A program made the translations under genes and the position numbers. A stretch of DNA of 40,319 bases, taken from Candidatus Heimdallarchaeota archaeon AB_125 (GTDB lineage Archaea > Asgardarchaeota > Heimdallarchaeia > Heimdallarchaeales > Heimdallarchaeaceae). Every line of letters begins with the position of its first letter. Position 1 is the stretch's first letter. The stretch is from NCBI GenBank assembly GCA_001940755.1, contig MEHH01000001.1, positions 1 to 40,319 on the forward strand, in the 5' to 3' direction. The notes below the pieces were generated by a model. It ran no database searches and was not told where the DNA came from. It saw only the letters and a list, made by a program, of their open reading frames with translations. Positions 1 to 35,649 of this stretch are shown here, one piece after another.

Positions 1-170
1 TCACCAACTTGTTGAAATCGTAAATCATCTGCAAGTGAAGTTTGAATCCATAGTTCTTTACCTCTTTTCTTCAGCATTTGAGATAGATTAGTAATTTCCT
101 CTTGATGTGATTCTCTGAATGAAGCTAAATCACATAAAATATCAATCTTTGGAGGTGCTAACTTCTTCAT
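1..170 (-). CDS. hypothetical protein, N-terminal fragment running off the left window edge
   Basis: Not in the ORF track because it is too short. The reverse complement of 1-170 reads ATG(170-168) MKKLAPPKIDILCDLASFRESHQEEITNLSQMLKKRGKELWIQTSLADDLRFQQVG with no stop before the edge. The start overlaps the cofG 3' end by 29 nt, which fits operon continuation. No family recognised. Confidence 0.3.
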   Translation of the reverse strand, partial: MKKLAPPKIDILCDLASFRESHQEEITNLSQMLKKRGKELWIQTSLADDLRFQQVG

Positions 171-1242
171 TTGCTTTGAATTCCTCTACTATTTCGCGTA
201 TTCTAGTGTTTAAATACTTTTCATATTGAGGATAAACAGGAAGTCTCTCAACTAGAGAAAATCCAGCTTGGTGAAGTTCTTCACTCAGATCTAATTCTTC
301 TTGCCATACCAGATTAGGGTTAATATAATCAATTGAAACTGGAGATATTCCACCTAAATCATTTGCACCATGGTTGATTGCAGCTATAACTCTATCTCTA
401 TTTAGATTTGGAGGTATCTGAATACTCACTTCATCAGGTAGAATGAGTTTGGCTAAAGCAATTGAAAAAAGTATATCCTCTTCTTTTGGTGGTGGATAAT
501 TAGCCATTGGAGTGCTTTTTTGTGGATTAAAATTCTGAATTATTACTTCTTGAATGTGATTGTATTTTTTAGCTAAATCTGCTATAACTTTGATGGATTC
601 TATTCTCTCCATCCATGTTTCCCCAATTCCAATAAGTATCCCAGTTGTAAAAGGAATATTGAGCTTTCCCGCATTTTCAATCGTTTCAATTCTCAAACAT
701 GGGTTTTTTCCTGGAGAATGATGATGTGCTTCACCTTCATTCATCAATCTAATACTGCTTGTTTCGAGCATTAATCCCAAACTAGCATTTGTTTGTTTCA
801 GCATCTGTAACTCTTTATAGGACACTAGACCAAGATTGGAATGAGGTAAGAGATGAAATTCTAAAGCTTGTTCACACAGATAGTTAACATACTCAATGGT
901 TGTTTGGAATTCTAGTTTTCTAAGAATATCTTTAGCAGTTTGATATTTTTCCTCTGGTTTTTCACCAAGGGTTAAAAGAACTTCCTTACAATTATTGTTT
1001 TTAGCTATAAGTAAAAGCTGATCAAATGCATCAGGAAAAATCCACGAATTAGAATCATCAGATACAAAACTACAGTACCCACATCGATTACGACATTGAT
1101 GTGTTACAGGTACGAAGATATTCCTAGAAAAAGTAATTTGCTTTCCGTGTTTCCTTTCTCGTTTAATTCCAGCTTTTCTAACTAGCTCAGTAGGATCATT
1201 ATTGAGTAGATGTAAAAAGTCTTCAGAATTCATCTTATTCAT
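142..1242 (-). CDS. cofG: FO synthase subunit CofG (7,8-didemethyl-8-hydroxy-5-deazariboflavin synthase, radical SAM)
   Basis: 366 aa. The radical-SAM motif CRNRCGYC sits in the context ITFSRNIFVPVTHQCRNRCGYCSF. The C-terminal block GANDLGGISPVSIDYINPNLVW is CofG-like rather than CofH/MqnC/MqnE-like. The start overlaps the upstream reductase stop by 8 nt. Confidence 0.8.
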   Translation of the reverse strand: MNKMNSEDFLHLLNNDPTELVRKAGIKRERKHGKQITFSRNIFVPVTHQCRNRCGYCSFVSDDSNSWIFPDAFDQLLLIAKNNNCKEVLLTLGEKPEEKYQTAKDILRKLEFQTTIEYVNYLCEQALEFHLLPHSNLGLVSYKELQMLKQTNASLGLMLETSSIRLMNEGEAHHHSPGKNPCLRIETIENAGKLNIPFTTGILIGIGETWMERIESIKVIADLAKKYNHIQEVIIQNFNPQKSTPMANYPPPKEEDILFSIALAKLILPDEVSIQIPPNLNRDRVIAAINHGANDLGGISPVSIDYINPNLVWQEELDLSEELHQAGFSLVERLPVYPQYEKYLNTRIREIVEEFKANEEVSTSKD

Positions 1243-1915
1243 CTTTCTTCAATTTAAGAGTAACAAGATACCCTTCATGTAACTTTTCAACTGCTCTAAT
1301 CTCAAAACTAAGTGCATTGCCGATATTATGAATTACCTCTTTCTCAAATAGAAGTTTTGCATTCTTTACTCCTACAAAAACTGGAGCATAAAAGATATAC
1401 ATTATATCTACTAAATTCTTATCCAAGAATTGAGTAATTACTGTAGAACCTCCTTCCACCAACACTTTGTCAATATTAAACTGGTCTTTTAATTTCTTAA
1501 GCGTATCTTCTAAATCTAGAAAACGATTATTTTTCTCCATTTTTACAGTAATTACTTTCGAACCAAGTTTTCTGATTTCTTCTTGAATATCTTCTGAAGA
1601 CCCCTCTGATGTAATAATAATTGATGGTGATGTTTCTTGATCTTGTAAAACTTTGGAAGTCAAAGGAATTCTACATTTAGTATCCAAGATTACCCTGAAT
1701 GGCGCTGGTTCTTTAGGTTGGACGTATCTCACCGACAATAATGGATCATCTTTGATAATTGTGTTTACTCCTACTAATATTGCATCTACTGAATTTCTTA
1801 ATTCATGAACCCTTACAAAGTCCTCTGTTGTGGATAATATAAGGGCTCCTTCATCTGAAGCTATTGCCCCATCTAATGAACTTGCCACGTTGATAATTAC
1901 TTCCGGTCTTTCCAT
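1235..1915 (-). CDS. 2,5-diamino-6-ribosylamino-4(3H)-pyrimidinone 5'-phosphate reductase (stand-alone RibD C-terminal-domain type, archaeal form)
   Basis: 226 aa. PEVIINVASSLDGAIAS...VHELRNSVDAILVGVNTIIKDDPLLSV and VLVEGGSTVITQFL match the RibD_C (DHFR-like) reductase pattern. No fused cytidine-deaminase-type domain is present. Confidence 0.75.
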   Translation of the reverse strand: MERPEVIINVASSLDGAIASDEGALILSTTEDFVRVHELRNSVDAILVGVNTIIKDDPLLSVRYVQPKEPAPFRVILDTKCRIPLTSKVLQDQETSPSIIITSEGSSEDIQEEIRKLGSKVITVKMEKNNRFLDLEDTLKKLKDQFNIDKVLVEGGSTVITQFLDKNLVDIMYIFYAPVFVGVKNAKLLFEKEVIHNIGNALSFEIRAVEKLHEGYLVTLKLKKDE

Positions 1916-3054
1916 TTGATCACCTTGCCTTTGTACATCTGAAAACAGATATCTGATTGGTCAGCACGTAGTGTAATAGCTGTATAAACATCTTTAGAAA
2001 ATTTTAGATTATAGCTTTCTAAATCTATTGCAAGAAGGTCTCCACTATAGCCGATTTTGAGCTGACCAATTTTCTGTTTTAGTATCAAACCTGCATTTAC
2101 AGTTATAGATTTCAGCACTTCTTTTGGGGATATATTCTGACAATTAGCTCTTGCATTGTAAAGTGTAAATGCCATTAGTCTGAAAGGATCTGGGTTACAC
2201 GATAGCACATTATCAGTACCAAGACTGAATAAAATATCATATTTTTGAATTAACTCAAGAGGTGGAAACTTCAACCCAAAATACAAACTAGAAATTGGAC
2301 AACAAACAACATCAATATCCCTCTGACTTAGAAGTTTAAGCTCTTCGTCTTTAGAGTAGTTTGCATGTACAACAAAATCAAAAACGTCATTTTCAGTAAT
2401 AATAGATATATCTCTTTTGCCAAATTTTGAAATGGATTCAGCTATTACTTCTTCTGATTCAGAAACATGAATTCCTACTAACATAGAGGGATTATTTGTT
2501 TTTAACTTTGAGAGAGTTGTATAGCCTTCCTGGTTTATATCAAAAACATCTCGTATCCCTAATCCATCACAGTTTTTACTGACTTCGTCAAATGTATTTT
2601 TTTCTGTCTGACGTCCTAGAATTATTCCTCGAATTGGATACTGTTTCAATTCATTTCTTAACAAATCAATACCTCTAATACCTTCTTCTCTAAAGTCTGC
2701 AAAAGAAGTAAATCCATTTTGTATGAGCATCTCTAAGGAGTTCCTTATACTTCCAATTTTTTCTTCAATTCCACTAGTGCTTAGTTTACTATGTTTAATA
2801 CCATTTGGCCCTACAGCTTCCTCCAGAGATGAACCATAAGTTTGATCTTTTAGAAAAGCATCCCCAAGATGTATATGAGCATTTATGAAACCAGGAACAA
2901 TCACATATGAGGAAGGTAAAAGATAATCAGCTGTCTTCTTCTCTTTAGCTATAGATATAATAACTCCTTCATCATCAATTTCTATTGTCATATCCTCGGT
3001 AAATGTTAAATCTGAACCAAGCAAGGCATTTCCACGTATTGAGACCATATTCAA
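1897..3054 (-). CDS. amidohydrolase-superfamily metal-dependent hydrolase, deaminase/chlorohydrolase subgroup
   Basis: 385 aa. Four motifs are present in the usual order: HxH metal motif in PGFINAHIHLGD, HxxE in VGIHVSESEEV, a later His in VVHANYS, and Asp in SLGTDNVLS. This pattern is typical of guanine/cytosine/MTA-deaminase-like members. The gene overlaps the downstream reductase start by 19 nt. Confidence 0.7.
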   Translation of the reverse strand: MNMVSIRGNALLGSDLTFTEDMTIEIDDEGVIISIAKEKKTADYLLPSSYVIVPGFINAHIHLGDAFLKDQTYGSSLEEAVGPNGIKHSKLSTSGIEEKIGSIRNSLEMLIQNGFTSFADFREEGIRGIDLLRNELKQYPIRGIILGRQTEKNTFDEVSKNCDGLGIRDVFDINQEGYTTLSKLKTNNPSMLVGIHVSESEEVIAESISKFGKRDISIITENDVFDFVVHANYSKDEELKLLSQRDIDVVCCPISSLYFGLKFPPLELIQKYDILFSLGTDNVLSCNPDPFRLMAFTLYNARANCQNISPKEVLKSITVNAGLILKQKIGQLKIGYSGDLLAIDLESYNLKFSKDVYTAITLRADQSDICFQMYKGKVIKWKDRK

Positions 3055-3162
3055 AGGAGACAGAAAATTTTAAGCTAATAAAGCTTTGTAGAATTTAAGA
3101 AAAAATGAAGAAACACTATATTTATAATTCAACCTTTTGAAATTAGCCTCAAGCACAATTAT
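3055..3162. promoter_or_regulatory. divergent promoter region between the amidohydrolase operon (-) and the EF-2-family gene (+)
   Basis: TTTATAAT at 3121-3128 lies about 35 nt upstream of the EF-2 start (GTG 3163 / ATG 3166). On the minus strand, TTTATTAG (3082-3075) lies about 21 nt upstream of the ATG at 3054, so that mRNA could be leaderless. These are archaeal TATA-like boxes judged by eye only. Confidence 0.4.
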
Positions 3163-5403
3163 GTGATGAAAATGGTTCGAGTAAAGAATCCAGAAGAAAT
3201 TAGAGATATGATCAAGAATCACCCAATGGAATTAAGAAGAGTTTTTACCATAGCAGCTCATATTGATCACGGTAAAACAACTACAAGTGACTATCTTCTT
3301 CGTAAAGCAGGTCTTATGTCAGATGCCGATGCAGGCAAAAAGGTAATGATGGACTCTGATGAAGAAGAACAAGAAAGAGGTATTACTATCTTCACAAGTG
3401 TTGTTATGTTGAACTATGAATATGAAACTAAAGAGGGAGAAAAAAATTCCTATCTTTTTGAGATTAACGATACACCTGGACACATTAGTTTTACTGGTGA
3501 AGTAAGTAGAGCTCTTCGTGGTTCTGATGGTGTTATTTTATTAGTAGACGCTCTTGAAGGCGTAATGACACAAACTGAAACAAATATCAGATTAAGTTTA
3601 AATGAAAAATGTAAACCTGTTCTATTCATTAACAAGGTTGATAGGCTAATCTCAGAATTAAGATTAGCTCCTGGAGATGTTTTTCAAAAAATCGATAATA
3701 TCCTTAATGAAGTAAACAAACTAATCAGAGATAATGCTCCAGAGGGATTAGGAAAAGATTGGCAAGTTTCCTTTCCAGATGGATCAGTTGCAGTAGGAAG
3801 TGCAAAAGATGGTTGGGCATTTAACATGGGAACCTTACAAAGATTGAAAATCACACCCCAAGATGTTTTTGCAAAATATGATGAAGATGATAAGGATTGG
3901 TTAAGAGAAAACCTCCCATTAGAAGAACCTTTACTTGAAATGGTTATCACACACTTACCAAATCCAATTGAAGGACAAAAAATGAAAATTCCCGCCATTT
4001 GGGGTGGAGATCTTGACTCTCCAGAAGGTCAAGCACTCATGAATTGTGACCGAGACGGTCCACTAATGGGTATGATAACTAAGATTTTCATTGAACCAAA
4101 ATCCAAAAGACCAACACTAATTGGTAGAGTTTTTTCTGGTACATTAAGAAGTTCAGATACTTTGTATCTTGTTGGTAAGAAAACTTCAGCGAGAATTAAA
4201 AGACTTGGTGTGATGGAAATCACAGATATTCTTGATGTTGATGAAGTTCCAGCAGGAAATCTCTTTGCAATTTATGGATTTATTACACCTGCGGGTGAAA
4301 CGTTCATTCGAGAGGAAGATAAAGGCACATTAACTCCATTTGAAGAAATTTCTTATGTAGCAGAACCTGTTGTTAGCAGAACTATTAAACCAAAAGATCC
4401 TCAAGATATTGCAAAACTTGGTGAGGTTGTTTCAAAATGGATTATGGCAGATCCAACTGCTACTTTCAGACATGATGAAGAATCTAAAACATATGTTCTC
4501 TCAGGTATTGATCCTCTTCAAATTGAAATTCTTGTAACTAGAATTCAAGAACAAGTACTAATTGAGGTAAGTGATCCAATTATAGTTTATAGAGAAGTAC
4601 CAACTAAAGTAGGTATTAATGTTCATGCTAAATCTCCAAATGGTCATAACAGACTAATGATTCATGTTCAACCTTTGAATCAAGCATCAATTGATCTAAT
4701 CAACTCTGGTAAAGTAAATAATGATCAAGAAAGGAGAGATCGAGCAAGAATCCTTCAAGAAGAAGGTGGATGGGAAGCCAAAAGAGCAAGAAGAATTTGG
4801 CACATTCAAGATTCAAATATGATTATCGATGCAACTACTGGTGTTCAAAGATTGGATAACATCAAACAATACATTATTCAGGTTTTCATTGATTTCTGCA
4901 GTGGTGCTACTTTAGCGAAAGAACCTCTTATGGGAGCATTATTCACAATAACTGATGCAAAAGTTCACGTTGATCCAGCTCATACTGGATTTACTGAAAT
5001 TTTCCAAATGTGTTTGGCAGCATATCATACAACCTTTCTAACCAGTGACCCACAGTTACTAGAACCTATGCAAATTATTGACATCAAAGTTCCTTCAGAT
5101 TATGTTGGAAATATGTCTAAAATAATTACACAACATAGATGTATTATTCAAAACATGATACAGGAAGGAGAAAACACTAGAATACGAGGAAAATTACCTA
5201 CAGCTGAAACTATTGATCTTGCAGATGAAATTCGTGGAAGCAGCTCAGGCCGAGCTTTCTTTGGCTATGAATTTACAGGATTCGAAAGAGTTCCTACAAA
5301 TTTGGAAGAAGAAACAATTGAAGCAATCCGTGTTCGTAAAGAATTATCTCCTCAAGTTCCAGATGTATCTAATTGGGAACGTTTCATGTACAAACGAACC
5401 TAA
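3163..5403 (+). CDS. translation elongation factor 2 family GTPase (aEF-2 or EF-2 paralogue) with diverged diphthamide loop
   Basis: 746 aa. The GTPase motifs are intact: G1 AHIDHGKTT, G2 RGITI, G3 DTPGH and G4 NKVD. Colinear aEF-2 domains follow. The domain IV tip reads HVDPAHTGFTE where canonical sequences have HxDxxHRGxxQ. The start is GTG 3163 or ATG 3166. Confidence 0.85.
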   Translation: MMKMVRVKNPEEIRDMIKNHPMELRRVFTIAAHIDHGKTTTSDYLLRKAGLMSDADAGKKVMMDSDEEEQERGITIFTSVVMLNYEYETKEGEKNSYLFEINDTPGHISFTGEVSRALRGSDGVILLVDALEGVMTQTETNIRLSLNEKCKPVLFINKVDRLISELRLAPGDVFQKIDNILNEVNKLIRDNAPEGLGKDWQVSFPDGSVAVGSAKDGWAFNMGTLQRLKITPQDVFAKYDEDDKDWLRENLPLEEPLLEMVITHLPNPIEGQKMKIPAIWGGDLDSPEGQALMNCDRDGPLMGMITKIFIEPKSKRPTLIGRVFSGTLRSSDTLYLVGKKTSARIKRLGVMEITDILDVDEVPAGNLFAIYGFITPAGETFIREEDKGTLTPFEEISYVAEPVVSRTIKPKDPQDIAKLGEVVSKWIMADPTATFRHDEESKTYVLSGIDPLQIEILVTRIQEQVLIEVSDPIIVYREVPTKVGINVHAKSPNGHNRLMIHVQPLNQASIDLINSGKVNNDQERRDRARILQEEGGWEAKRARRIWHIQDSNMIIDATTGVQRLDNIKQYIIQVFIDFCSGATLAKEPLMGALFTITDAKVHVDPAHTGFTEIFQMCLAAYHTTFLTSDPQLLEPMQIIDIKVPSDYVGNMSKIITQHRCIIQNMIQEGENTRIRGKLPTAETIDLADEIRGSSSGRAFFGYEFTGFERVPTNLEEETIEAIRVRKELSPQVPDVSNWERFMYKRT

Positions 5404-28758: not shown

Positions 28759-29517
28759 TTATCTGAAAAGACGTCGATCATCCTCGAATTGAAGTTCTTC
28801 AACATTAGAAACTGGAGATCTAAACTGCATTCCCCTTACAATAACTACTGGGGTCATTTCACCTGCTTGTCCCATTACAAGTTCTGCAGCTGAACAAACT
28901 TCGTCAGCTAAAGCTATTATTGTTGAAGTAAGTTCATATCCAAAGATATCCGATCTTCCTCTAACATCATCAATTACTGGAAAATTATAAGACCCAATTG
29001 CCACATTAATTGCACCTCGTCTTAAGGCTCTTCCATGAGTATCCGAGACAATAACAGAGATGTTTTTTTTCAAATTATTAGATAGAGTCGAATAAATTTC
29101 CATTGCTGATTTGTTGGAATCATCAGGGAGAGTAACAGCACAATTTGATTGAGCATTGGATTGATCAACAGCAGAATTTGCACAAATCCACCCATGCTTA
29201 GTTTTAGTGATTATGATGTTATTTCTAACCTTAAGAATCTTTGAAGCATCATTAACAATTAATTGCACTAAAGCAGGATCCTTTCCTGTTTTTCTTGAGA
29301 TTATTTCAGCTAAAGGAGAAGGAGCAATTTCTGGTAAAAAAAATTCTTTTCCCTCAGCTCTAGAGATTATTGTATGGGCTATTACAAATACATCTCCTTC
29401 ATTTATCTCTAGTTTTTCTTCTTCAAGAGAGTCAATAATTAGAGAAGCAACATCATCTTTTAGAGCTATAATTGGTAGCTTTAAAGGAATTATCTCTACT
29501 CTTGTTATTGTTCTCAC
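28759..29517 (-). CDS. cofE: coenzyme F420-0:L-glutamate ligase CofE
   Basis: 252 aa. EGDVFVIAHTIISRAEGK and VSDTHGRALRRGAINVAIGS are characteristic CofE blocks, and the size is typical. Confidence 0.8.
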   Translation of the reverse strand: MRTITRVEIIPLKLPIIALKDDVASLIIDSLEEEKLEINEGDVFVIAHTIISRAEGKEFFLPEIAPSPLAEIISRKTGKDPALVQLIVNDASKILKVRNNIIITKTKHGWICANSAVDQSNAQSNCAVTLPDDSNKSAMEIYSTLSNNLKKNISVIVSDTHGRALRRGAINVAIGSYNFPVIDDVRGRSDIFGYELTSTIIALADEVCSAAELVMGQAGEMTPVVIVRGMQFRSPVSNVEELQFEDDRRLFR

Positions 29518-29542: not shown

Positions 29543-30601
29543 TTAATTAGTTTCGATTGGTGGTAAAGATTTAGTGGTTCTCTTTTTGACTGAAGAGAGC
29601 TTAAGAGCTGCTGCTAGAGTTTCTTCCCATTTATCTTGTTCTACTTTTTCAACATCTAGAATATTCTCTTGAAGAGCTAAATCAAATAATTCTTTTCCAG
29701 CTTGAGTACGAATTATAATTAAATTACTATCATCATCAACACCAACATTACCAATAGATATATCGGCAAATTCAGCGGAGAAATCTTTGCAATATTTGCA
29801 TCCTTCAGCTTTTGCTTCAGCACATTCTTTTATTTTTATATCTGTAGTTCCATCTGGAGCTACAAAGAAGAATTTTCCTCGAGCACAATCTGTCTTAGTT
29901 AGTTCTTCTGCATCCAAACCAAGATTTTGGGAAAGAATGTTTCTGAAATCTCTTGGATTATAACTACTCATACAAAAGAGACCAATTTTGTACTTTACTC
30001 GGTGGTCTGCTCCTAGGTTTTTCTTATCAATAACATTTGTCAAGGTATCAATATGACATGGTAATCCTACAACAGCTACTGAATCTTTATGACTTAATTT
30101 AATAGATGTGAGTTTGATAAGTAAAGGATTAAGTACATATTTTGAACGTGCAGATTTTCTTATATCAAGTTCATTTAGTGCTAAACGAGGAACAGGTCCT
30201 AAAAGATCATTAATGTGTCCTGTTACTAACGCACCATCAATATCTCCTTTTCTCATTGCATTTAAGAGTAAAGTTGTAACAATTCCTCCATTCTGTGCTC
30301 TTTCTCTAACGTCCCCATATATTGAATGACCTTTATAGATCTCCATAATTTCTCCTAAACTTGTTTCATCGTAAATAGGTTGTTCTTTTCGTTGTTTGTA
30401 TCTCAAACAAATATCTACACAAGCACCACAAGAGATACAACCTCCAACCAGTTTAGGAATAAGTTGCTCTATTGAAATCACATAAACCGGACATACAGCT
30501 TCACATCCTCCGCAAGACACACAATACCCTGGTTTGATTACTTCTCTATTCAGCATAGCAAAATTTGCTCTTCTTTTCTTCGTTGGTTGTGCTTCACTCA
30601 T
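29543..30601 (-). CDS. FrhB/FdhB/FpoF-family F420-dependent oxidoreductase subunit with N-terminal 2x[4Fe-4S] ferredoxin domain
   Basis: 352 aa. There are two CxxCxxCxxxC-type clusters (CVSCGGCEAVCP, CISCGACVDIC). AQNGGIVTTLLLNAMRKGDIDGALVTG and VAVVGLPCHI then match FrhB N- and C-domain patterns. Confidence 0.75.
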   Translation of the reverse strand: MSEAQPTKKRRANFAMLNREVIKPGYCVSCGGCEAVCPVYVISIEQLIPKLVGGCISCGACVDICLRYKQRKEQPIYDETSLGEIMEIYKGHSIYGDVRERAQNGGIVTTLLLNAMRKGDIDGALVTGHINDLLGPVPRLALNELDIRKSARSKYVLNPLLIKLTSIKLSHKDSVAVVGLPCHIDTLTNVIDKKNLGADHRVKYKIGLFCMSSYNPRDFRNILSQNLGLDAEELTKTDCARGKFFFVAPDGTTDIKIKECAEAKAEGCKYCKDFSAEFADISIGNVGVDDDSNLIIIRTQAGKELFDLALQENILDVEKVEQDKWEETLAAALKLSSVKKRTTKSLPPIETN

Positions 30602-31892: not shown

Positions 31893-32480
31893 CTAGAGAG
31901 TAAATTCCTTTCTGAATTTTAGCATTTCGTCTCCAAATTGGTGAGATAATCTACTTGCATGATGAAATATCTTATCCACATTGAAACCAGAAAGAGCTGA
32001 AGTTTCTACATAATCAAATTTATGCAATCTGGTATATTCAAGAATTGTTTCTTTTTCTAAAGATCTGGCTTCATTTAAATCAAATTTATTCCCACAGATA
32101 ATTATTGGGATATCAGGACATTTTGAAACAACTTCATTTACCCAAATTTCTAAATCATCAAACGAACTCTGATTAGTAATATCATAGACAATTACTGCGC
32201 AAGTTGCACCAGCATAGTATTTAGGGCGGAGATAGGTAAACATTTCTTGGCCGCCTGTGTCCCATAAAGAAAGTCTAATAGTTAAGGGATCACTATAGAT
32301 TTCCTTTGTTAAATTTTCATTCAGTTCTTCTGGAGATAATGTAATTGTTTTTGTAAGCCAACTCACCCCTAAAGTAGGAATATAGCTGTGAATAAAAGTG
32401 TTTAATGTAAATCTTCTAGCTAGTGATGTTTTACCAACAAATGCCGAACCAACGCATATTATTTTTTGTAACTGATTCAT
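31893..32480 (-). CDS. Ras-superfamily (Rab/Ras-like) small GTPase
   Basis: 195 aa. All five G motifs are present: G1 GSAFVGKTS, switch I YIPTLGV, G3 WDTGGQE, G4 GNKFD and G5 ETSAL. An insertion of about 15 aa precedes G3. There is no C-terminal Cys prenylation motif. The start is 4 nt after the upstream stop. Confidence 0.85.
   Translation of the reverse strand: MNQLQKIICVGSAFVGKTSLARRFTLNTFIHSYIPTLGVSWLTKTITLSPEELNENLTKEIYSDPLTIRLSLWDTGGQEMFTYLRPKYYAGATCAVIVYDITNQSSFDDLEIWVNEVVSKCPDIPIIICGNKFDLNEARSLEKETILEYTRLHKFDYVETSALSGFNVDKIFHHASRLSHQFGDEMLKFRKEFTL

Positions 32481-33453: not shown

Positions 33454-35649
<2,196 letters not shown>

Follow-up and report, generated by a model that had tools for sequence, protein, structure and literature searches.

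Which enzyme removes the 2-amino group from the pyrimidine precursor of riboflavin and FO in archaea? Pyrimidine deamination is one of three gaps in archaeal riboflavin/F420 synthesis that have no proven enzyme, together with ArfB and the phosphatase (Pfeiffer et al., 2021; PMC8305020). A stretch of 40,319 nucleotides from Candidatus Heimdallarchaeota archaeon AB_125 (the window, by which we mean this whole stretch) bears on the question, for near one end an amidohydrolase gene overlaps arfC, which encodes a stand-alone RibD_C pyrimidine reductase, and arfC in turn is followed by the FO synthase genes cofG and cofH. Our analysis indicates that the amidohydrolase gene, at 1897-3048 on the minus strand, very likely encodes the archaeal pyrimidine deaminase of the FO/riboflavin precursor pathway. 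An earlier note on this DNA had suggested that the amidohydrolase supplies the missing deamination, and linkage, clade and model scores support that suggestion. The genes, motifs, fold, linkage, co-occurrence and pathway gap on which this reading rests are established here.

The protein is assigned by its TIM barrel, its catalytic set and its HxxE motif to the mononuclear, COG0402-like deaminase subgroup of the amidohydrolase superfamily. The HxH, HxxE, His and Asp motifs that had been read from the sequence are H60/H62, H196/E199, H230 and D281; none of these residues varies among 80 family members, and in a profile alignment they line up with the metal ligands and proton shuttles of solved deaminases. 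An AlphaFold2 model built from 18 homologues reaches a mean pLDDT of 95, and its best structural matches are COG0402-type deaminases (TM 0.85-0.89, identity 14-20%). Matches at TM 0.80-0.89 comprise both deaminases and dechlorinases of this type: 3lnp, 4dzh, 4f0r, guanine deaminases, the isocytosine deaminase Vcz, AtzA and TrzN. A sequence search of solved structures returned no close relative, its top single-sequence match scoring 46 bits. Public annotation goes as far as 'amidohydrolase family protein' for members of the family, and the ESM Atlas look-alikes of the window protein fall in generic archaeal amidohydrolase clusters only.

Model scores and phylogeny place the protein more closely. 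Among curated models NF005552 (PRK07213, 'chlorohydrolase') fits best, with 248 bits, and every other deaminase model stays at or below 81 bits. Scores are 63.6 bits on the DadD model NF005557 (cut-off 522), 33 on the MtaD model NF012037 (cut-off 779), 53 and 47 on the SsnA models NF005540 and TIGR03314 (cut-offs 444 and 455) and 40 on an 8-oxoguanine deaminase model. The guanine deaminase models TIGR02967 and NF006679 reach 69 and 48 bits (cut-offs 375 and 351) and match the C-terminal half only. In a quick maximum-likelihood tree with long branches, the window protein and two Heimdall orthologues fall inside a 26-row operon-linked clade (SH-aLRT 100, branch length 1.06) that takes in proteins of Nitrososphaerota, Bathyarchaeia, Methanobacteria and Asgard archaea; three paralogues from the window's own genome lie outside it. 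Placement relative to guanine deaminase, MtaD, DadD and SsnA, which the earlier note had proposed as a check, sets the protein clearly apart, from all four by model score and, in the tree, from the DadD- and MtaD-like paralogues of its genome. The window protein is 28-35% identical to the non-Heimdall members that were aligned or matched in the locus search described below. One locus from that search, L053 (Leptolinea), groups with the MtaD-like paralogues in the tree and was dropped from the family.

Residues beyond the catalytic set also mark the family. D65, K87, R122, E123, R148, C252, N282 and R363 are kept in the window protein and in 99-100% of the 80 members; the own-genome paralogues on contigs C150 and C10 lack them all, and the paralogue on C92 has C252 only. 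The basic residues among these that adenosine-type paralogues lack (K87, R122, R148 and R363) would fit an anionic, phosphorylated substrate.

The window starts at the end of a contig (33% G+C) in a Heimdall-type Asgard metagenome-assembled genome of 225 contigs that is 86% complete. Three overlapping minus-strand genes had been described there as one unit, and the open reading frames (ORFs) 1897-3054, 1235-1915 and 142-1242 are indeed all present at the coordinates named beforehand. The identities given for the second and third, a stand-alone RibD_C reductase and CofG, are borne out by 148 bits on RibD_C and 423 bits on NF004884. Two details of the description change. The listed amidohydrolase ORF opens at TTG 3054; an in-frame ATG at 3048 is the likelier start, since homologues have 383 aa and the ESM Atlas entry begins at residue 3. 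The unit also contains a fourth gene, which the description missed: cofH, starting at an ATG at 170 and running off the contig. Its 56-codon start shares 62% identity with the N-terminal part of the gene that follows cofG in another Heimdall locus (L009). Within the same assembly, contig C169 carries 40 residues of this cofH at its end and then 318 aa more, and the whole 358-aa ORF is 70% identical to CofH of L009. Contigs from three other sequencing runs reach 0.9-3.4 kb past window position 1. The cofH ORF at 170, its continuation on C169 and the outward-reaching contigs together identify the unit as amidohydrolase-arfC-cofG-cofH.

The four genes are tightly packed. The arfC ATG (1915) lies inside the amidohydrolase gene, whose stop is at 1899-1897, giving an overlap of 19 nt; the cofG ATG (1242) precedes the arfC stop (1237-1235) with an overlap of 8 nt; and cofG and cofH overlap by 29 nt. 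From this arrangement we infer that the four genes probably form one transcript. TATA-like stretches can be seen by eye near 3128-3117 and 3083-3075, the second of them about 30 nt upstream of ATG 3048. In one run labelled as metatranscriptomic, and flagged as probably DNA, a 184-nt contig covers 2138-2321, which is too little to build on.

Linkage to the reductase in other genomes, another check proposed beforehand, is widely conserved. We scanned one genome per prokaryote species and kept the best 80 of 588 relatives as loci, with counts given over 81 loci; ORFs were called, neighbours clustered and the clusters named by NCBIfam. The family gene has arfC as an adjacent, same-strand neighbour in 61 of the 81 loci and arfA (GTP cyclohydrolase III) in 48. 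Within 3 kb lie ribH (46/81), ribB (45/81), ribE (34/81) and cofG/cofH (17/81). The linkage to arfC is kept in Asgard archaea, Nitrososphaerota, Bathyarchaeia and Thermoproteota, and spans at least five archaeal phyla. The Nitrososphaerota order is ribE-ribB-ribH-arfA-X-arfC, in which X, the amidohydrolase, is the sole gene without an assigned step, and across the 81 loci no other unassigned gene is conserved in the rib/FO operons. The order amidohydrolase-arfC-cofG-cofH recurs in Asgard archaea of Loki-, Thor-, Hermod- and Heimdall-type, and the amidohydrolase adjoins arfC in 27/27 genomes of the window's taxonomic family. Directly upstream of deaminase-arfC-cofG-cofH in Loki-, Thor- and Hermod-type loci (among them L016, L019, L025, L034, L039, L044, L048, L057, L069 and L075) stands a gene for an MptA-type GTP cyclohydrolase, mostly divergent and on the same strand in L021 and L074. 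The mptA gene of the window's genome stands apart from the operon, at C35:4331-5308.

The family also follows the enzymes that would consume its product. We compared 70 genomes from the window's class, each with a completeness of 80% or more; they are mutually related, so the counts are descriptive and carry no statistical test. The amidohydrolase family occurs in 51 of them, ArfC in 58, RibA in 56, CofG in 46 and RibH in 13. Of the 51 genomes with the family, 49 encode a consumer of 5-amino-6-ribitylaminouracil, either RibH or CofG; of the 19 without it, 2 do. Genus g14 shows the same association on a smaller scale: CofG is found in 11 of 12 genomes with the family and in none of seven without it, and ArfC-like genes are found in 18 of 19. 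Four genomes (G031, G035, G037 and G038) have the family together with RibH and without CofG. Six genomes of genus g14 (G044-G047, G050 and G051) carry ArfC-like RibD_C reductases (E ~1e-43 to 1e-51) without a deaminase candidate, CofG or RibH; these reductases probably have another role.

The pathway around the gene leaves exactly this step open. We surveyed 27 genomes, the window's own and 26 of its taxonomic family; two are closed, and one of these lacks RibB and RibH. ArfC and CofG are present in all 27 and RibA (GTP cyclohydrolase II) in 26; ArfA is present in none. A search of the window's own genome for ArfA, RibB and RibH returned none of the three. GTP can reach the FO synthase substrate only if some enzyme deaminates the pyrimidine. 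A search of the 27 genomes for the deaminase half of RibD gave weak generic matches only, at or below 40 bits in 26 of them, and one 76-bit fragment in the remaining genome (G020). The cytidine deaminase (CDA) fold occurs in just two proteins of the window's genome, one dCMP-deaminase-like and the other a cytidine deaminase; neither has a RibD-type domain. Since RibA, ArfC, CofG and CofH are present and the genome has no credible RibD-type deaminase, the operon amidohydrolase is the only pyrimidine deaminase candidate. Nucleoside deamination appears to be covered by other genes, as their sequences suggest: a separate DadD-like gene on C150 (485 bits on NF005557, cut-off 522) and two further MtaD/TRZ-ATZ-like genes.

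In the proposed route, RibA (contig C2) would convert GTP to 2,5-diamino-6-ribosylamino-4(3H)-pyrimidinone 5'-phosphate and ArfC would reduce the ribosyl group to ribityl. The amidohydrolase would then remove the 2-amino group hydrolytically, yielding 5-amino-6-ribitylamino-2,4-pyrimidinedione 5'-phosphate, and a phosphatase would take off the phosphate. CofH and CofG would combine the product with tyrosine to give FO, which CofD and CofE would convert to F420. At the active site, H60, H62, H196 and D281 are the metal ligands predicted from homologues; H230 and the HxxE glutamate, E199, may shuttle protons while a metal-bound hydroxide attacks C2, by analogy with guanine deaminases and with methylthioadenosine/S-adenosylhomocysteine (MTA/SAH) deaminases. 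What the enzyme acts on, which metal it holds and whether reduction comes before deamination are given here as we infer them.

RibB and RibH each occur in one of the 27 genomes of the taxonomic family, and CTP-dependent riboflavin kinase occurs in 25. With RibB and lumazine synthase absent, the product of the deaminase branch appears to serve only FO/F420 in the Heimdall family. The gene complement predicts that F420 is both produced and used in the window's organism. We lean slightly towards the view that the RibA-ArfC-deaminase branch has been kept only to feed FO synthase, making these organisms riboflavin auxotrophs that still make F420. Residue changes peculiar to the Heimdall clade, set out below, might reflect such an FO-only specialisation. 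The single genome with RibB and RibH is closed (G006) and has both in one place, a compact bacterial-type ribH and a fused ribBA at G006:C1:242281-243929 with very high scores on bacterial models; as the sole family member with these genes, it may have gained them by transfer.

The location of the gene beside cofG and cofH lends itself to another explanation, which the earlier note had offered as its alternative: a DadD/MtaD-like deaminase that clears 5'-deoxyadenosine, a by-product of the neighbouring radical-SAM enzymes CofG and CofH. Such enzymes share the fold and the catalytic residues of the window protein, the operon is shared with cofG and cofH in Asgard archaea, and in genus g14 the family tracks CofG. 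We consider this very unlikely. The protein scores 64 bits on the DadD model and 33 on the MtaD model, far below their cut-offs, and the genome already has the DadD-like gene on C150 and two MtaD/TRZ-ATZ-like genes. The family is also found where there is no radical-SAM partner to serve, flanked by arfA and arfC and away from any cofG/H in 42 Nitrososphaerota loci and in the four genomes that have RibH and no CofG, and this reading would leave the pyrimidine deaminase gap unfilled. Position beside arfA suggests a different role again, that of a formamide hydrolase in place of ArfB, which would deformylate what GTP cyclohydrolase III makes and leave its amino groups alone. Amidohydrolases are able to hydrolyse amides, ArfB is poorly assigned in many archaea (PMC8305020), and in 48 of the 81 loci arfA immediately precedes the gene. 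The catalytic HxxE/His/Asp set and the nearest folds, in contrast, belong to the deaminase/dechlorinase subgroup, and all 27 genomes of the taxonomic family keep the gene beside arfC, yet none has ArfA and 26 have RibA. Because ArfA is missing and RibA leaves no formyl group, a deformylase role is ruled out in the window's lineage, and for the protein as a whole we regard it as highly improbable.

The linkage to arfC could in principle be coincidental or regulatory, with the enzyme acting as a deaminase of some unrelated molecule, be it a purine, a pterin or something triazine-like. Deaminases of guanine, isocytosine and 8-oxoguanine are among the nearest structural matches, and the divergent gene upstream in Loki-, Thor- and Hermod-type loci encodes a pterin enzyme, MptA. 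It is hard to credit this, given that the linkage persists over at least five archaeal phyla, that presence of the family follows RibH or CofG, and that the guanine deaminase models give 48-69 bits against cut-offs of 351-375. These three readings, a DadD/MtaD-like enzyme, an ArfB substitute and a purine or pterin deaminase, were rejected on scores, paralogues, linkage and the absence of ArfA. A fourth keeps the role and alters its detail: the enzyme would take the ribosyl product of RibA and deaminate it ahead of ArfC, which is the bacterial order, or it would act on the dephosphorylated pyrimidine. The lineage does use the bacterial-type RibA in place of ArfA, the window's ArfC scores 160 bits against a cut-off of 186 on the archaeal reductase model, and the Heimdall clade combines a long branch with three changed near-invariant residues. 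Against it, the characterised archaeal reductase MJ0671 acts ahead of deamination, according to its citation in PMC5397151, and the retained K87, R122, R148 and R363 argue for a phosphorylated substrate. We therefore think this variant unlikely, and prefer a deaminase that acts on the phosphorylated ribityl compound after ArfC.

Several observations weigh against assigning pyrimidine deamination to the window protein. Its 248 bits on NF005552 fall below the curated cut-off of 294. No genome of the class, out of 70 searched, reaches this value, and two of the four control genomes (M. jannaschii, H. volcanii, S. acidocaldarius and M. acetivorans) do; the model appears to be fitted to a more restricted group of proteins. 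In the Heimdall clade, the window protein included, three near-invariant residues are changed (R254 to I, N256 to S and E293 to L), and the clade sits on a long branch. The gene is unlinked to rib genes in Methanobacteria. Within the class, G032 and G033 have a consumer of the product without a family member, and in G001 and G048 the reverse holds. Our literature search, PMC11665356 included, found no published assay for any family member. Finally, we equate the window family with the MJ0699/HVO_2483 family indirectly, through NF005552 matches in the M. jannaschii and H. volcanii genomes (E <= 1e-30) and through the clustering described in the papers cited below.

The idea of an archaeal pyrimidine deaminase in this family is not new, for it was put forward in print in 2010 and 2017. 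The candidate 'PyrD' goes back to Osterman, Overbeek and Rodionov (2010, cited in PMC5397151), who based the proposal on co-occurrence and on clustering in the chromosome. Rodionova et al. (2017; PMC5397151) stated that the 'PyrD' prediction awaits testing and listed it in the RbkR regulons of 15 genomes, and Pfeiffer et al. (2021; PMC8305020) named HVO_2483 and MJ0699 as the candidate, for which experimental confirmation is required. The earlier note's statement that the step had no firmly assigned gene is right in that no enzyme has been shown experimentally, and it overlooked that the family had already been proposed as 'PyrD'. The window protein is a new, divergent Heimdall member of this already proposed candidate family, and the present result a well-supported rediscovery. 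It shares with 'PyrD' the best model NF005552, the catalytic set, the family-specific residues, a place beside arfC and rib/FO genes, and the predicted step. It differs in scoring below the NF005552 cut-off, in its three changed near-invariant residues, and in heading an arfC-cofG-cofH operon in a lineage without RibB and RibH, where it apparently serves FO and not riboflavin.

Two groups of characterised enzymes invite comparison. Like the N-terminal domain of RibD and yeast RIB2 (EC 3.5.4.26 and related), it is proposed to remove the 2-amino group of a diaminopyrimidine hydrolytically, and it has a RibD_C reductase as neighbour, which is fused to the deaminase in bacteria and is encoded by a separate gene here. 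It is not of the same family: RibD and RIB2 have the CDA fold with zinc-binding H/C-x-E ... PCxxC, whereas the window protein is a TIM-barrel amidohydrolase. With the MTA/SAH deaminases (TM0936, 4f0r), DadD, guanine deaminase (2uz9, 6ohb), Vcz and AtzA/TrzN it has in common the fold (TM 0.80-0.89), the metal ligands and the HxxE/His residues, and the chemistry is presumably shared because the ligands and these residues are the same. These solved COG0402-type deaminases differ in length (400-470 aa, against about 383 aa here), are 14-20% identical to the window protein, and belong to families whose models all failed on it; the window protein in turn has HxHxxD after strand 1 and the DFRE, G-R148, CP and TDN motifs.

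If the assignment is right, a TIM-barrel amidohydrolase does the job of the RibD/RIB2 zinc deaminase, a clear case of non-orthologous replacement. To the candidate family the window adds an Asgard member and, with it, new context. A lineage with RibA and without ArfA excludes the deformylase role and so sharpens the case for a deaminase, and without RibB and RibH the only consumer of the product is FO synthase. If the FO-only reading also holds, this lineage would be a natural case of the candidate deaminase uncoupled from riboflavin synthesis. Positions of the genes are collected in Table 1.

Table 1. Features of the window and related genes of the same genome. Plain numbers are window positions; C numbers are other contigs of the assembly.
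Feature	Position	Strand	Evidence and remarks
Amidohydrolase-superfamily deaminase, candidate 'PyrD'/MJ0699-type	1897..3048	-	383 aa; Amidohydro_1 (PF01979) 95 bits; NF005552 248 bits
arfC, stand-alone RibD_C pyrimidine reductase	1235..1915	-	PF01872 148 bits; TIGR01508 160 bits (cut-off 186); TIGR00227 163.5 bits (cut-off 150)
cofG, FO synthase radical-SAM subunit	142..1242	-	NF004884 423 bits and TIGR03550 396 bits, both above cut-off
cofH, first 56 codons, truncated by contig end	3..170	-	open-ended ORF, ATG at 170
A/T-rich spacer of 114 bp between the amidohydrolase operon and the divergent EF-2-like gene; probable promoter	3049..3162	.	read by eye
CofE (F420 gamma-glutamyl ligase)	28759..29517	-	227 bits; second copy on C43
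FrhB/FdhB-family iron-sulfur flavoprotein	29543..30601	-	adjoins CofE
RibA (GTP cyclohydrolase II)	C2:8341-8826		
ArfC, CofG, CofH of the own genome	window and C169		
CofD	C143		

Other genes of the window lie outside the pathway. The divergent gene at 3163-5403 (+) encodes a GTPase of the elongation factor 2 (EF-2) family whose 656 bits on aEF-2 fall short of the cut-off (738); this GTPase is probably an Asgard EF-2 paralogue. Farther along are a Ras/Roc-family small GTPase (31893-32480, minus strand, 149 bits) and a CDC48-type AAA ATPase (33454-35640, minus strand), and the presence of these two is in line with the Asgard origin of the window.

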